In this document: one piece after another, positions 32,492-39,656 of the stretch | Position numbering within the stretch: position 1 is the stretch's first letter | Layout of the letters: each line of letters opens with the position of its first letter | DNA from: a virus | Lineage: Duplodnaviria > Caudoviricetes | Length of the DNA stretch: 64,000 bases | Virus record (IMG/VR): IMGVR_UViG_3300012979_000043 | Coordinates: 5,615 to 69,614 of that record | Reading direction: 5' to 3' (one strand) | The notes under the pieces: generated by a model | Database searches by the model: none | The model's input: the letters and a program-made list of their open reading frames with translations, nothing else | Told to the model about the DNA's origin: nothing | Made by a program: the position numbers and the translations under genes

Positions 32492-32499
32492 AAAAAAAT

Positions 32500-32768
32500 T
32501 GGCTGGCTAAACAGGACTCGAACCTGTAACCACCTGATTACTTTACCACTATAGTTTTCACTACCTATTTCTAGTTTGTGGTCTGGACTTTGTCTTCATC
32601 TCATTGAGATGGATGGTATAAAGTCTCTACACATAGATTATTTCTAATCCTTGCTCGGCGTTGCCATTTTAAAGGTTTCACCGACTTAGCCATCTTATCA
32701 CTTATAAATCGCTTTATAAGGCTGCTAATATTTTACAGTCAGGGGCTCTACCATTGAGCTATTAGCCA
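32500..32768 (-). tRNA. tRNA-Asn(GTT) with group I intron
   Basis: Exons 32768-32735 and 32540-32500 join to CCTGA-CT-GT|T-AA-TCAGG; CCA. Confidence 0.9.
32541..32734 (-). mobile_element. group I intron (IC3-like, ORF-less, 194 nt) at tRNA position 35/36
   Basis: 5' exon ends in T, intron ends in G; TCGGTGAAACC, AACGCCGAG, GTAGAGACT, AAAGTCC core elements. Confidence 0.9.
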
Positions 32769-32828
32769 ATAAATTTCATATTCACTATGTCTTTATTTAT
32801 TATATCATACTATATATTTTATAATATG

Positions 32829-33356
32829 TCAAGAATTATTTTTATATTTTTTATAATGACTCATAATTGTATTACGATTTATATTCAATTCTTTTGCAAT
32901 TTGATGATATGATTTATTTTCTACATCTTTCATATATACAATTTTTTCATCAACATCTTTACCATACTTATATGTTTTACTATGGGTTTCATACAAACTA
33001 TTTTTCTTATCTAAAAATTCTTTTGCATGTATTTCTCTATGACAATTAGCACAAACACAAATGCATTTATCTAATTCTTCTTGAACTCGTTTCCAACTTC
33101 TTGTACATCCATCTTTACAGATTCCAAATTCTTTTTGTGTTGGGTCTAAATGATGAAAATCTAATGCTTCAATACACTTATTATATCCACAAATTTCACA
33201 TTTACCACCTTTATATTCAACTGCTTTTTCTTTCAAACGATATCTTCTTATTTGTACAAGTTCTAATCTACATTTTTTACATCTCCATCGTTTATCTTGT
33301 TTTTCATAAACAAAGGGTGTTTCACCATGTATCTGACAAGTTCTAATTTCTTCCAT
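32829..33356 (-). CDS. free-standing HNH endonuclease
   Basis: CEICGY....LDFHHLDP..KEF...CICVCANCHREIH; C-terminal HTH. Confidence 0.88.
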   Translation of the reverse strand: MEEIRTCQIHGETPFVYEKQDKRWRCKKCRLELVQIRRYRLKEKAVEYKGGKCEICGYNKCIEALDFHHLDPTQKEFGICKDGCTRSWKRVQEELDKCICVCANCHREIHAKEFLDKKNSLYETHSKTYKYGKDVDEKIVYMKDVENKSYHQIAKELNINRNTIMSHYKKYKNNS

Positions 33357-33427
33357 AATTTATTATCTCCTCTTTAATGAAAGAATATCACATAACAAAA
33401 TCATTGTCAAGAATTATTTTTTAAAAA

Positions 33428-33505
33428 TGGTAGGGAAGGAAGGACTCGAACCTTCAAACCTGAGATTTATAAGATCCCCGTGCCAACCAGTCACACCGCT
33501 TCCCC
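33428..33505 (-). tRNA. tRNA-Ile(TAT)
   Basis: GGGAT-CT-TAT-AA-ATCTC, A73, CCA. Confidence 0.85.
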
Positions 33506-33742
33506 ATAATTAATTACATACACCGTTTATCCAATGTTTATCTCCAACCAAACATGTGCCAACGGTTAGAAGTGCCTATCCAATGATATGGTCTTGAATG
33601 TTTAATGATTACATATTAACTAATTTACAACAACTTTCTTTATGTTATTAATTATATCATAATTTGAAACCATTGTCAATAGAATTTTTTAATTATTTTT
33701 GGAGTAAGTTGTTTGGAATGATAACATAAACTGTATAATAAA

Positions 33743-34056
33743 TGGCGGACGCAGAAGGATTTGAACCTTCGGATGCCTTACAGCATCGCCAGTTTTCCTT
33801 ACCAACTATAGTTTTCACTACATAGTTATATCTAACTACTTTGTGGTCCGGACTTTACCTTCATCTTCAACATTACTTGTTCAGATGCCTACCGTCAAGT
33901 CTCTACACCTTACATATTTCTATGTCTTGGCTCGGTATTGCCATTTTACAGGTTTCACCGAATTTGATAGGTTCTACTCATATATTTCTATATGGCACTC
34001 GTTTTCTGATTCATTAGGAATAAGACTGGTGCAATCAACCACTCTGCCATACGTCC
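33743..34056 (-). tRNA. tRNA-Ser(TGA) with group I intron
   Basis: Exons 34056-34022 and 33797-33743 join to CCAGT-CT-T|GA-AA-ACTGG; long variable arm, G73, CCA. Confidence 0.9.
33798..34021 (-). mobile_element. group I intron (IC3-like, ORF-less, 224 nt) at tRNA position 34/35
   Basis: TTCGGTGAAACC, GCAATACCGAGCC, GTGTAGAGACTTGAC, GGTAAAGTCC, terminal G. Confidence 0.9.
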
Positions 34057-34098
34057 TTAATACTCATACATATTTACTATTTTTAACAACTTTATTTA

Positions 34099-34476
34099 TT
34101 ACCAAACACCTTTTCTTTTCTTTCTATCACTATTTTTATTTTTAGATTTATATGTTGGTAATTGTGCATCACAATTACAACAAACCAATCTTAAATTTTC
34201 TAATCTATTGTCATTTGCTCTACCATTAATATGGTCTAAAACTAATGGGATTAAACTACCCATCCAATTTTCTTCACCACATATTTCACATTTATGACCT
34301 CTTGTTTCAATAATATATTTTTTTATTTGTCTCCAATCACAACCAATCCCATTATTTTCTTCAACTTGTTTCATTTTTTCATTATGATGATATTTTATCA
34401 TACAATCTTTAGAACAAAATTGTGATGTTTTGTGTTTTGGTTTAAATTCTTTTCCACATTGTTTACAAATATACAT
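34099..34476 (-). CDS. free-standing HNH endonuclease
   Basis: CEICG...LVLDHING...DNRLENLRLVCCNCD. Confidence 0.88.
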   Translation of the reverse strand: MYICKQCGKEFKPKHKTSQFCSKDCMIKYHHNEKMKQVEENNGIGCDWRQIKKYIIETRGHKCEICGEENWMGSLIPLVLDHINGRANDNRLENLRLVCCNCDAQLPTYKSKNKNSDRKKRKGVW

Positions 34477-34539
34477 TTTTTACCCATTCTTTTCATAATC
34501 TTAATATATTATATCACTTTTAATTTATATTTTCAATAA

Positions 34540-34851
34540 TTATTTTGTAAAATCTGAATGATATTTTTCATTAATCAAATCAACATCACCACCAACATAC
34601 CATTCATATTTTCTTACTCTGCTTTGTCTATCTGTATATTTAGAGACAATAGTTGGTTTAAAACCATATTTCTTTTCATATGCTTCTACAAAACAAGGTG
34701 CATCAGCATCTTCTTCCAAATAAAGATATTCACCTCTTACATGAGAAAATCCTGTAATAAGTTTTTCTACACCAACTTCTTTTACTTCAGATTCTTTAAC
34801 TTTTAACCAACCATGTGATGGGTCTGAATACATAGTAAATGATTTTCTCAT
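34540..34851 (-). CDS. conserved hypothetical protein
   Basis: SDPSHGWLKV...YLYLEED.DA. Confidence 0.7.
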   Translation of the reverse strand: MRKSFTMYSDPSHGWLKVKESEVKEVGVEKLITGFSHVRGEYLYLEEDADAPCFVEAYEKKYGFKPTIVSKYTDRQSRVRKYEWYVGGDVDLINEKYHSDFTK

Positions 34852-35242
34852 AATGATTTCCTTTCATCTGTTGTTTTCTTGATAGATGTAATATATCATA
34901 ATTAGAAACCATTGTCAAGAGATTATTTTAAATTATTTGGATGAATGTCATACTTTTTTATATACATCTCACTTTTGACCACTCAAATCTATTACTCCTC
35001 ATTCCACAAAGCATTATTGTGTTAGGTAGATAAGCGTCTGACATTGTTTATTGTTTGGCTTTCCACCAAACTTGCTGGGTTTGGAGATAAGGGAGTATCC
35101 CAACTACATTTTACCTATAACCTAAGTTACAGAACCTTACGGATTTGGTTGCCACCAGACTATTAATATATAGGCTTACCAACAAGGGCATTTCTGAACT
35201 TGATTTGTTACCATTCAACACCAACCTATATATCTCAAAAAA

Positions 35243-35317
35243 TGGAGCGACCAGTGGGAATTGAACCCACATCCTCAGCTTGGAAGGCTGTAATAATAAC
35301 CATTATACTATGGTCGC
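35243..35317 (-). tRNA. tRNA-Gly(TCC)
   Basis: Loop CT-TCC-AA, U73, CCA. Confidence 0.92.
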
Positions 35318-35506
35318 ATTTGCTGTTATGTATTACTTTTTACTTGGTCTATGTTTAGCCTTGGGTAGCAATAGGATAACATAGTCTTTGACATATCACA
35401 GCTTATTCAAAGAAAACTCCTATTAGTGCTTTGGGTGATTACCCCTATCATCTGTGTATTAGATTTACATACATAACATTCTCCAACATAGAAAGAGAAA
35501 TTCAAA

Positions 35507-35580
35507 TGGTTACCTCATCTGGACTCGAACCAAAAATAACAAGATCAAAACCTGCTGTGATACCATTTCACCATGAGGTA
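35507..35580 (-). tRNA. tRNA-Gln(TTG)
   Basis: Loop TT-TTG-AT, U1:A72, CCA. Confidence 0.9.
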
Positions 35581-35585
35581 ATAAA

Positions 35586-35659
35586 TGGTAGACCCTGACA
35601 GTGCTGCCCTGCCGACTCAACCGTGTAAAGGTTATGTGATACTGTTTCACCAAGGGTCC
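35586..35659 (-). tRNA. tRNA-Val(TAC)
   Basis: Loop TT-TAC-AC, atypical T loop GGCAGCA, CCA. Confidence 0.85.
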
Positions 35660-35660
35660 A

Positions 35661-36504
35661 TTATTTTTTATGTTTCATACTTGCTCTATATTTTCCAGAA
35701 CAGTACAAGCAACAAAAATGATTTTTATGTTTTAATCGTGATTTCTTATTAGTTTTTATTTCCTTGCCACAATAATCACAGTTTAGTATATATAATGGTT
35801 TATAATCATCATATAATTCATAAAAATTATTTTGTCCCTTATTATATATTTTTTTTATTATATGTATCAGCTACATATTTCATTTCTTTAATTATATTAT
35901 CATAATACAATAATTTATACTCTTTATCACCAATAGACATTTCTTTAATAGAAACATCACCTCTATCATAGCCCTTTATTTCTGTTATAATTCCTTCAAC
36001 AACAAAGTCAGGATGATATGTATGTTTCTCACCATTTAATTCATATTCAAATACTTCATTACATCTCTTAATATCTATATTATGGTCTAAGCAATAAATT
36101 AAATATGCCAATTCATAAGTACTATCACACCATATACCCTTATAATATCCAGAATATGATTTTCTGTGCCCCTTTAATCTATAACCACCACCCATATCAG
36201 AACCTTTTAATTTTCTTGTTTTATATTGGAGTAATTGACAACAATGATTTGAACAGGTTTTCCTCTGACTTTTTCTATATTTTATTCTTTCAACTTCAAA
36301 TTCTTTACCACATATAACACAATTTCTAATTATTTTATCAAAATGTAAATTTCTCATTGTAATGGATAGCTTTTTTCTATCTACAAATGAATGACTATAT
36401 GCTGATGCACATTTTCTACAACAAAAATCACCAGAAGAATATTTGCTATATTTTTCTGTAAAAACTTTACCACATTGTTTGCATATATATTTTTTATGTT
36501 TCAT
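35661..36504 (-). pseudogene. PD-(D/E)XK (TnsA-N-like) endonuclease, apparently frameshifted at an A8 run
   Basis: GIWCDSTYELAY...YHPDF...EIKGY in 35842..36504; shifted frame 35849-35661 continues FYELYDDYKP...CDYCGKE...CCLYC. Confidence 0.65.
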
Positions 36505-36527
36505 ATATTCATTATATCACAATTTAA

Positions 36528-37187
36528 TTAATCATTCAATAATTTTATAATTCTTTTATCATTTTCACAAAAACATTTAACAGATGTTCTAAAACAATTG
36601 TCTTTCAAAGACTCATGTCTTATACATGATATGTGTTCTTCATTATCAAATAATGCACCACAACACCATATTATAACATTCTTATTGTTGGTATCTTCAA
36701 ATATCAATTTACTTCTTCTATCTTTTTGATTACCTTCATACCCCTCAAATCTATGTATAAATTCGGTTTTATGAGATAATTTACCTGTGATTATTTGACT
36801 ACCACCAAGGAAATAACAACTATCTGCTATTGATAATGCTTTATCAACAAACTTTGTTAATTCTGAAAATGGTGGATTTCCTATTATAAAAACATCTTCC
36901 AATGTATTATATTCATAAAAATCTTGTTTAATAACTTTATCATTTAATGGTTTTAAATCAAAAGATTGACATTTAATACCATATTGTTCTATTACTTCTT
37001 GCCATCTACCATCACCAGCACATGGGTCAATCCATAACTTATTTTTCAATTCAGGTTTTATTTTCAATATTGATTGAACAATTTTATGAATAACATCTGT
37101 TGGAGTTTTATATAATTCTCTACCAAAACCTCTTGTATCAGTTTCTCTTTTGAAAAATGTTAAACTCTGTTCATATGTTCTTTTCAT
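36528..37187 (-). CDS. amino-(adenine)-methyltransferase-like protein
   Basis: IDPCAGDG and IIGNPPF motifs; start moved to MKRTYEQ because the listed N-terminus overlaps tRNA-Leu. Confidence 0.75.
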   Translation of the reverse strand: MKRTYEQSLTFFKRETDTRGFGRELYKTPTDVIHKIVQSILKIKPELKNKLWIDPCAGDGRWQEVIEQYGIKCQSFDLKPLNDKVIKQDFYEYNTLEDVFIIGNPPFSELTKFVDKALSIADSCYFLGGSQIITGKLSHKTEFIHRFEGYEGNQKDRRSKLIFEDTNNKNVIIWCCGALFDNEEHISCIRHESLKDNCFRTSVKCFCENDKRIIKLLND

Positions 37188-37211
37188 AATTATATACCCT
37201 TTGAATGTAAA

Positions 37212-37298
37212 TGGTGGGCATACCCAGAGTCGAACTGGGATGGATTTACATCCGACAGATTTTAAGTCTGTTGCGTCTACCAATTCCGCCATACGCCC
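37212..37298 (-). tRNA. tRNA-Leu(TAA)
   Basis: Loop CT-TAA-AA, long variable arm, CCA. Confidence 0.95.
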
Positions 37299-37305
37299 AA
37301 AAATT

Positions 37306-37381
37306 TGGCCTCCTTACCAGGATTTGAACCTAGAATACAAGTTTAGAAGACTCGTGTGATATCCAATTTCACCATAAGGAG
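37306..37381 (-). tRNA. tRNA-Arg(TCT)
   Basis: Loop CT-TCT-AA, CCA. Confidence 0.92.
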
Positions 37382-37385
37382 TATA

Positions 37386-38066
37386 TTATATATTCTTAAA
37401 AGTTTCTTTGAATTTTTTTACATATTCATCAACTTTATCTTTAATTAATTCCTTAAATTTTGAGTGCCAATATGCATGATGTGTTGGACATAAAGGAATT
37501 AAATTATTAGGATTATTATTATAATGATTTTCATCATAATGATGTACTGCTACAATATTTTCTTCACCACAAATACAGCATTTATGAGGATGATGGAGAA
37601 AACAAATTTTTTGATGTATTTTTGATGTAACACCATGTTTTTCTCTATATTCTTTTCTTTTTTTCTTTTCTAATTCTTGCCTATATCTGGCATTTTTTAA
37701 TTTTTCAATATCACCACCATTTAATTCTACATATTTTTTGAACATTCCATTATTTTCACCACTTCTAAAATATGTATTAGAACAAGCATTTGAACAACAA
37801 ACTTGTTTTGATGCTTTCTTTGATGTTTCTGTAAAAAATTCTTTACCACACACTGGACAAACTTTTTTAATATGATACTTATTAAAATAATTTTCTTTAA
37901 TAATGTCCATATCAAGATTTAGTTCTTTAATTTTAGAATTAATAAATCTCATAGAAGAACCATTATTTGGTATATTAAAATATCTTATAATATCAGATTT
38001 ATTTGTTGCCTCATTAAAAACATTTATAAAATCCTTATCTGTAATTCTATCAAATCTATTATCCAT
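37386..38066 (-). CDS. free-standing HNH endonuclease
   Basis: CCICG....VHHYDENH.NN.P.NLIPLCPTHH; start moved to MDNRF. Confidence 0.85.
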   Translation of the reverse strand: MDNRFDRITDKDFINVFNEATNKSDIIRYFNIPNNGSSMRFINSKIKELNLDMDIIKENYFNKYHIKKVCPVCGKEFFTETSKKASKQVCCSNACSNTYFRSGENNGMFKKYVELNGGDIEKLKNARYRQELEKKKRKEYREKHGVTSKIHQKICFLHHPHKCCICGEENIVAVHHYDENHYNNNPNNLIPLCPTHHAYWHSKFKELIKDKVDEYVKKFKETFKNI

Positions 38067-38096
38067 TATAATAACCCTTAATTTATTTATTAAAAT

Positions 38097-38415
38097 TGGT
38101 CGGAGCAAGGTGATTCGAACACCTGACCACCTGTCAATATGTTATCGTAAAGCTTTTTATCTTTACTTCTTATTGTTTCCAATAAGTTCGGCATACATTT
38201 TCATCTATTAAGATGTCCAGCACTCGTGGGAAGATTATATTTATTCACTTCCTATGCTCTACGATGTTCAATGACCTATTCGCAATTCATTGAATTATCT
38301 CGGTATTATCATTTTACAGACTTCACCGATATTGCTGGATTTATACTATCAAACAATGATAGTAGGGCACAATTTTACCCAAAACAGGTGCGCTACCAGA
38401 CTGCGCTATGCTCCG
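38097..38415 (-). tRNA. tRNA-Pro(TGG) with group I intron
   Basis: Exons 38415-38377 and 38134-38097 join to CCTGT-TT-TGG-GT|ACAGG; CCA. Confidence 0.88.
38135..38376 (-). mobile_element. group I intron (ORF-less, 242 nt) at tRNA position 38/39
   Basis: P1 GGGU/GCCC with U.G at the splice site; TCGGTGAAG, AATACCGAG, P7 GCATA/TATGC; terminal G. Confidence 0.82.
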
Positions 38416-38635
38416 ATTAAAAAATCTCTGGTTCAAGTTTCATTAATATTATATAAAAGATACCCTACGATTCTCCTCTGCAGCATAAATCGGTACTCTA
38501 CTGTAATATATAATAGTTTCTTTAATTTTCCAATAGCAGAAACCCAACCAAAAAACATCTACAATCACAATTTCTTATTCTTATTTTTAACCTATAGGTG
38601 GGAGAAACTGTAAACAACCCCAAAAGGATAATATT

Positions 38636-39586: not shown

Positions 39587-39656
39587 ATGATATGATAGGA
39601 TTCGAACCTATGACCACCAACATTAAGTCGGTGCTCTACCACTGAGCTACATATCC
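39587..39656 (-). pseudogene. degenerate tRNA
   Basis: Canonical D and T arms but shortened anticodon loop (CCGAC-TTAAT-GTTGG), 1:72 mismatch, no CCA. Confidence 0.6.

Follow-up and report, generated by a model that had tools for sequence, protein, structure and literature searches.

Three split tRNA genes in the tRNA array of a jumbo gut phage carry predicted group I introns of two different families

The DNA considered here (hereafter the window, 64 000 nt) corresponds to bases 5615-69614 of a 69.6-kb IMG/VR virus record and contains three transfer RNA (tRNA) genes, tRNA-Asn(GUU), tRNA-Ser(UGA) and tRNA-Pro(UGG), whose anticodon arms are each interrupted by a short sequence with the anatomy of a group I intron. 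The phage origin of the record is confirmed by PHROGs matches to proteins of tail-fibre-like, virion structural, DnaB-helicase and Ro60-like types. CheckV gives it as 19% complete, which implies a phage of ~360 kb, and related sequences are contained in bovine, sheep and pig gut runs; the window is part of a jumbo phage from the animal gut. All 24 tRNA genes found in the whole record by ARAGORN with the -i option lie in one minus-strand array. With default settings ARAGORN reports 21 tRNAs and the Rfam tRNA model 20, and both miss Asn, Ser(UGA) and Pro, while ARAGORN -i, run on the array and on the whole record, adds exactly these three genes (Table 1). None has a second copy elsewhere in the record. 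An earlier note made from the letters alone had stated that standard scanners would overlook these genes, that they were the only Asn, Pro and Ser-UGA tRNAs, and that they were split at 35/36, 34/35 and 38/39 by 194-242-nt introns devoid of open reading frames (ORFs). All of this holds, since the three inserts measure 194, 224 and 242 nt at these sites and contain no ORF of ≥50 aa on the intron strand.

The splice junctions proposed in that note, CTGT↓TAA (Asn), CTT↓GAA (Ser) and GGGT↓ACAGG (Pro), are also upheld. In all three genes the 5' exon ends in U and the intron in G, and the spliced sequences form canonical cloverleaves with an encoded CCA (ARAGORN -i). When IMG/VR was scanned with 19-20-nt words from the 5' exons, intron-less tRNAs were retrieved at 2 Asn, 3 Pro and 19 Ser loci; past the site they continue precisely as predicted for the 3' exons (TAATCAGG, ACAGG and GAAAACTGG), and the junctions are thus independently fixed. 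The same Ser(UGA) intron was found at the same site in another contig (L151). Alternative registers for the Ser gene (GGA at 33/34, UAA at 35/36) and a 'Lys' call for the Pro gene were rejected, because they break the rule of U at position -1 and a terminal G, give a wrong loop length or contradict the tRNA body. Among sequencing data, the 24 animal-gut runs listed contain ≤0.32 of the words each, and four were compared with the region. These four yielded contigs of relatives and no spliced joint at any of the three introns, which gives no verdict on splicing.

Table 1. Split tRNA genes, their exons and introns, and neighbouring features (window coordinates)
Feature	Position	Strand	Evidence and details
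tRNA-Asn(gtt) gene	32500-32768	minus	ARAGORN i(35,194); intron 32541-32734, 194 nt, position 35/36
tRNA-Asn(GUU) 5' exon, end ...CUGU (U35)	32735-32768	minus	ARAGORN -i and junction mapping
tRNA-Asn 3' exon, UAAUCAGG... to CCA	32500-32540	minus	ARAGORN -i and intron-less viral tRNAs
Asn intron, 194 nt, compact tRNA-type (IC3-like) group I	32541-32734	minus	RF00028 54.1 bits, helices, covariation
tRNA-Ser(tga) gene	33743-34056	minus	ARAGORN i(36,224); intron 33798-34021, 224 nt, position 34/35
tRNA-Ser(UGA) 5' exon, end ...CUU (U34)	34022-34056	minus	ARAGORN -i and junction mapping
tRNA-Ser 3' exon, long variable arm and CCA	33743-33797	minus	ARAGORN -i and intron-less viral tRNAs
Ser intron, 224 nt, same family as Asn intron	33798-34021	minus	RF00028 53.2 bits, helices, 86.9% identity to L151
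tRNA-Pro(tgg) gene	38097-38415	minus	ARAGORN i(40,242); intron 38135-38376, 242 nt, position 38/39
tRNA-Pro(UGG) 5' exon, end ...UGGGU (U38)	38377-38415	minus	ARAGORN -i and junction mapping
tRNA-Pro 3' exon, ACAGG... to CCA	38097-38134	minus	ARAGORN -i and intron-less viral tRNAs
Pro intron, 242 nt, terL-type group I	38135-38376	minus	blastn homology, fold, covariation
Free-standing HNH-like endonuclease gene, C-terminal helix-turn-helix (HTH)	32829-33356	minus	60 nt upstream of tRNA-Asn; similar in blastn to phage genes annotated as HNH endonucleases, weak Pfam
Free-standing HNH_3-like gene	34099-34476	minus	42 nt upstream of tRNA-Ser; sub-threshold Pfam match to HNH_3 (E=7e-5)
Free-standing HNH_2-like gene	37386-38066	minus	30 nt downstream of tRNA-Pro; sub-threshold Pfam match to HNH_2 (E=7e-4)
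Sigma-70-like promoter (TTGACA-17-TATGAT)	32804-32832	minus	~35 nt upstream of tRNA-Asn; consensus match only
Promoter-like motif sites	32804-32832, 33382-33410, 33651-33679, 34508-34536, 34890-34918	minus	Consensus scan and reading of sequence

Helices P1-P9 were assigned by hand in the three introns with every pair standard, and each intron contains the group I core, i.e. P3-P4-P5-P6 together with P7-P3'-P8-P7' and the P3/P7 pseudoknot. In all of them P7 holds the G-binding site (a G-C pair, a bulged A and a G-C pair) and P1 places a U.G wobble at the 5' splice site (CUGU/GCAG in Asn, CUU/GAG in Ser, GGGU/GCCC in Pro). The Asn and Ser introns, but not the Pro intron, show the compact IC3-type layout of tRNA introns, which are located in the anticodon loop, have no P5abc and no P7.1/P7.2, and have GNRA-capped P2 and P9; in these two introns GNRA loops cap P2, P6a, P9a and P9b. 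The Asn intron has a UAAU/AUUA P10 and a G as its last base, while the Ser intron combines a P1 of only CUU/GAG with a 1-bp P10, an enlarged P9a and a hairpin at the start of the P1 loop that is lineage-specific and common to L151. With the full RF00028 model (Rfam Intron_gpI, gathering threshold 50 bits) the Asn intron scores 54.1 bits and the Ser intron 53.2 bits. In longer stretches cmscan reported no Intron_gpI, whether it was given the whole window with gathering thresholds or 6.2 kb with E≤10; this is a filter effect, since a 281-nt query and a genome search both return 54.1 bits.

The hand-drawn structure is borne out by covariation. In a 47-sequence alignment of the Asn/Ser family, 84.4% of cells are paired, as against 30-43% in slid controls, and 0/500 shuffles match the observed values. 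Pairing reaches 99-100% in P3, P7 and P9b, where double changes are numerous, and the two P7 pairs of the G site are invariant in 47/47 members.

This family extends well beyond the window. Three copies of a degenerate 30-nt word that covers P4-P5 are present in the window (0 expected from 100 shuffles), and the word is found in at least 118 IMG/VR loci; among the matches listed there, 83/119 copies lie within tRNA genes. Once filtered for U at -1 and a terminal G, most of the listed copies are in tRNA-Leu(UAA) at 34/35, the other hosts being Thr, Arg, Gln and Lys at 34/35, Lys at 35/36, Met and Asn at 33/34 and Asn at 36/37. Most of these listed members sit in dense arrays of up to 25 tRNAs with 30-40% guanine plus cytosine (GC), which identifies the contigs as phage and speaks against those with Leu(UAA) introns being misfiled cyanobacterial or plastid DNA, a reading that was rejected. 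In bacteria the same word was found in only 57 contigs among 185 579 species genomes, 42/57 of them inside tRNA genes that are mostly single Leu(UAA) or Arg(UCU) genes, and the Asn/Ser lineage is thus shared with bacteria. The guide segment that precedes P2 varies with the host tRNA: UUU-GAG for Leu (CUU↓AAA), UAC-GAG for Thr (CUU↓GUA), UAG-GAG for Arg (CUU↓CUA) and AUUA-GCAG for the Asn gene of the window (CUGU↓UAAU).

Several individual family members deserve mention. In LR756501.1 (L004), a published but unannotated 735-kb phage genome, a tRNA-Leu(UAA) gene at ~190.2-190.5 kb carries, between positions 34 and 35, an Asn/Ser-family intron of 205 nt. Some of the tRNA-Leu(UAA) introns (L007, L031, L036, L042, L050 and L073) are 684-709 nt long, leaving room for an endonuclease ORF. 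A related group I core was also seen outside tRNA genes, in Pelagibacter phage HTVC120P (L003, 19.4-20.6 kb) and in KT997847 (L005), where the capsid gene is annotated as two 'capsid protein' coding sequences with the core between them; the gap is probably an unannotated intron.

It had been suggested that the Asn and Ser introns, on account of their common motifs, were close relatives lodged at different sites and therefore products of transposition. The motifs are present as quoted, but they constitute the invariant core of the family. The two introns are only 53.6% identical and each ranks 41st-42nd of 46 as a relative of the other in the family alignment; their nearest kin are in other phages. 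In a tree the Ser intron groups with the Ser 34 intron of L151 (86.9% identity, support 0.996) and the Asn intron with Lys 35 and Asn 36 introns of other contigs (support 0.996). The tree and the identities do not support an Asn-to-Ser transposition within this genome, and the idea was rejected. Site switching is real at the level of the family and is no evidence of a jump inside this genome, and the Asn and Ser introns each represent, independently of one another, the classical lineage of tRNA introns that is widespread among the tRNA arrays of phages.

The Pro intron belongs to another family. Its hand-drawn fold is fully paired (P1 GGGU/GCCC, P10 ACAG/UUGU, P2, P3, P4, P5, P6, P6a and P8), with a GCAUA/UAUGC P7 containing a bulged A and, in the 3' part, a P9 with a GAAA loop, a P9.1 and a terminal G. 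Between P7 and P3' it has a P7.1 hairpin with an invariant 14-nt loop, UGAAUAAAUAUAAU. A hairpin in this position belongs, as we read it, to IA-type phage introns, whereas the tRNA-type family has none. Searching with blastn returned 94 phage records, six of which cover ≥80% of the query. Among the matches that span nearly the whole intron (74-79% identity, 84-88% of the length) are introns that end annotated terL ORFs in the crAss-like phages cr131_1 and cr7_1 and in Staphylococcus phage SA2. Covariation in seven sequences of this family gives 83.9% pairing, values matched by 0/500 shuffles, with compensatory changes in all five P7.1 pairs, all eight P6a pairs, two P7 pairs, P9 and P9.1. The 'divergent P7' noticed earlier is there, but the difference goes beyond P7, since the intron belongs to a family that otherwise resides in phage protein genes such as terL.

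The Rfam search called for in the earlier note, in which the Asn and Ser introns score above the threshold, gave no RF00028 match for the Pro intron (331-nt query, E≤10). Nor is there a match (E≤1-10) for six of its relatives, of which three lie in annotated terL genes, so the model appears to be blind to the terL-type family, and the group I identity of the Pro intron rests on anatomy, covariation and homology. In contrast with the protein-gene residence of its family, its host is a tRNA, and a scan of IMG/VR with the P7.1 word produced 115 further copies with 0/115 in a tRNA. Within the window, a search for additional copies with the P7.1-loop and J6/7-P7 words recovered only the three introns. 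The terL homology, the lack of other copies in tRNAs and a guide that fits the exons over 8 bp together argue that the Pro intron is a phage intron of protein-gene type that would have been retargeted to a tRNA, its guide having been rewritten to fit.

From this body of evidence we infer that the three ORF-less group I introns splice out of the phage tRNA-Asn, tRNA-Ser and tRNA-Pro, which is very probably the best explanation of the locus as a whole. After transcription, each intron would fold into its P3-P9 ribozyme core and its internal guide would base-pair with the end of the 5' exon (P1), where free guanosine would cleave at the U.G wobble. Next, P10 would form between the guide and the beginning of the 3' exon, the intron's terminal G would enter the G site in P7 and ligation of the exons would produce normal tRNA-Asn, tRNA-Ser and tRNA-Pro. 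In accord with this scenario, P1 and P10 pair with their own exons over 4+4 bp in Asn and 4+4 bp (8 bp) in Pro, and foreign exon contexts pair equally well in 0/17 cases for the Asn guide and 2/17 for the Pro guide. Several points nevertheless tell against it. The guide of the Ser intron, with a 3-bp P1 and a 1-bp P10 (C-GAG; 3+1 bp), fits its own exons no better than other exons are matched by chance; P10 of the Pro intron has to compete with the anticodon stem; neither the Pro intron nor its six relatives match RF00028; the ORFs flanking the split genes have only sub-threshold HNH or HTH matches, their HNH assignments falling below Pfam cut-offs; and support for ligation comes from DNA anatomy.

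The neighbourhood of the split genes bears on why the introns are there. An HNH-like ORF lies 30-60 nt from each split tRNA (domain matches below Pfam cut-offs), which is the adjacency expected of collaborative homing. In related gut populations, contigs were found that lack 32493-33427 (the intron-bearing tRNA-Asn and its HNH gene), with 9 letters instead, and also 34098-34506 (the HNH gene upstream of tRNA-Ser), while the Ser and Pro introns are kept in a related phage population (contigs, gut DNA run). These missing blocks are presence/absence polymorphisms of whole cassettes, a pattern that would fit mobile endonuclease cassettes. The introns are most likely selfish elements, and by analogy with collaborative homing we infer that they are probably kept and spread together with the abutting HNH endonuclease genes.

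One alternative view is that the introns benefit the phage by destroying the HNH target in its own tRNA genes, so that cutting by the HNH enzymes would be confined to intron-less tRNA genes, those of co-infecting competitor phages or those in the host. If this were true, the intron/endonuclease cassettes would serve phage-phage exclusion and the turnover of tRNA cassettes. The idea draws on the position of every split tRNA ≤60 nt from a free-standing HNH-like gene (by our own count ~7-8/24 tRNAs neighbour such genes, and all three split ones would do so by chance with a probability of ~0.02-0.03) and on the variable presence of the HNH genes and of the Asn-tRNA/HNH unit among related populations. 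However, the association consists of three cases in one genome, other HNH-like genes of the array adjoin intron-less tRNAs and the HNH domain matches are weak; a benefit to the phage is possible but rather unlikely.

It is improbable, in our view, that removal of the introns depends on proteins (a phage or host chaperone, a maturase, or an endonuclease with an RtcB-type ligase) rather than being autonomous. Many group I introns do require protein cofactors in vivo (PMC3984707), and those described here are AT-rich with short P1, P5 and P10. Yet a purely protein-driven route would need none of the features that are kept, namely the guide, U at -1, a full catalytic core and a terminal G; close relatives of the family are at the Rfam threshold, and efficient self-splicing at 37 °C is on record for the compact tRNA intron of Azoarcus (PMC13168695).

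Phage tRNAs are accessory and normally supplement those of the host, for which reason the label 'essential-type' given to the three tRNAs in the earlier note is unproven; the absence of the whole Asn-tRNA/HNH cassette from a related population means that at least tRNA-Asn is dispensable. The notion that one or more of the introns (Ser most plausibly) is inactive, the split tRNA being a pseudogene tolerated because the host supplies that tRNA, could appeal to this absence and to the 3+1-bp guide pairing of the Ser intron, but it is very improbable given that core helices and G site are intact in all three introns, that the exons keep perfect cloverleaves and the encoded CCA, that the Ser intron of L151 has kept the site, the P1-loop hairpin and the guide at 86.9% identity, and that Leu(UAA) relatives also use a short GAG guide with short P1 and P10 (4+3 bp in L006). 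The three split tRNAs are a real and well-supported feature, and their splicing is predicted.

A few other features of the array may be recorded. A recurring extended promoter-like motif (AATTCTTGACAATG... followed by a TATAAT-like element) precedes tRNA and HNH units on the minus strand, and the promoter-like sites before tRNA-Asn and the HNH genes are strong. At 39587-39656 (minus) there is a second gene with a UAA anticodon, the normal one being at 37212-37298; this tRNA-Leu(UAA)-like call has its anticodon at position 32 and, at 70 nt, lacks the length of a class II Leu tRNA. The ORF-free stretches between tRNAs (33506-33650, 34940-35240, 35320-35505, 35585-35660 and 38420-38630, minus) gave no Rfam match at E≤10, and a search for syntenic relatives via an NPPF methyltransferase-like ORF turned up one locus, which is without tRNAs.

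How do these introns compare with those already known? Bacterial IC3 introns in tRNA genes have been described in cyanobacterial and plastid tRNA-Leu(UAA) at 34/35, in Azoarcus tRNA-Ile and Agrobacterium tRNA-Arg at 36/37 and in tRNA-fMet at 33/34, and the number of bacterial types was raised from 4 (all IC3) to 21 tRNA/site types in a preprint that did not treat phages (Williams 2020, bioRxiv 10.1101/2020.01.27.920355). Like these, the Asn and Ser introns are compact (~200 nt), sited within the anticodon loop, preceded by U at -1, terminated by G and endowed with the P4-P5 and J6/7-P7 words. Unlike them, they are hosted by a phage tRNA array in the combinations Asn 35/36 and Ser(UGA) 34/35, and the Ser intron has a shortened guide and an extra P1-loop hairpin. 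Group I introns in phage protein-coding genes have been reviewed as a class (PMC3984707) and are on record for crAss-like phages (PMC7886860). The Pro intron aligns with the terL introns of cr131_1, cr7_1 and SA2 over P3-P9.1 at 74-79% identity, and has the same P7.1 hairpin with the invariant 14-nt loop and the same 3' GAUAACA tail, but its host gene is a tRNA, split at 38/39, and its P1 and P10 are rewritten to the anticodon arm of tRNA-Pro.

In phage tRNA genes themselves, 'enigmatic', unclassified introns have been reported for Lak megaphages (Devoto et al. 2019, PMC6784885), and intronic sequences for the tRNAs of jumbo phages (PMC13037316). As in those cases, the anticodon region is interrupted here and the genes are overlooked by bacterial-mode tRNA finders; in contrast to them (unclassified, some short or tRNA-like), the three introns of the window are identifiable as group I ribozymes. 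In IMG/VR, a tRNA-Asn(GUU) with the same anticodon arm as ours was seen in L125:310-430 (a 452-kb contig) and in L128 (31 kb), with a 43-nt hairpin-forming insert exactly at the CTGT↓TAATC site; far below the size of a group I intron, it may be one of these enigmatic megaphage introns. According to Hausner et al. 2014 (PMC3984707), all phage group I introns then known were in protein genes, despite the many tRNA genes of phages, and a paper on the Jug jumbo gut phages lists 2513 group I introns without ever mentioning tRNA (PMC12880540). Our literature search turned up no paper that describes such introns in the tRNA genes of phages.

Group I introns in phage tRNAs, unknown according to reviews, are common in viral metagenome contigs, and the sequence evidence now allows the three of this window to be put forward as group I ribozymes. 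Since bacterial-mode tRNA finders miss such split genes, phage tRNA repertoires, the codon-usage arguments built on them and inventories of suppressor tRNAs are systematically incomplete. The Asn/Ser family provides a natural series of guide retargetings, useful for studying how ribozyme specificity changes, the Pro intron exemplifies a crossover from protein genes to tRNA genes, and the small size of all three (194-242 nt) makes them directly testable at the bench. More tentatively, and with some doubt on our part, phage tRNA arrays may constitute a large and essentially undescribed reservoir of group I introns, in which the tRNA lineage would hop between anticodon loops by rewriting its guide. 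The Pro intron would then be the first of protein-gene type (P7.1-bearing, non-IC3) to have been captured by a tRNA, at the 38/39 loop/stem boundary where exon alignment must unwind the anticodon stem, and HNH cassettes would drive the gain and loss of tRNAs and exclusion among jumbo phages.

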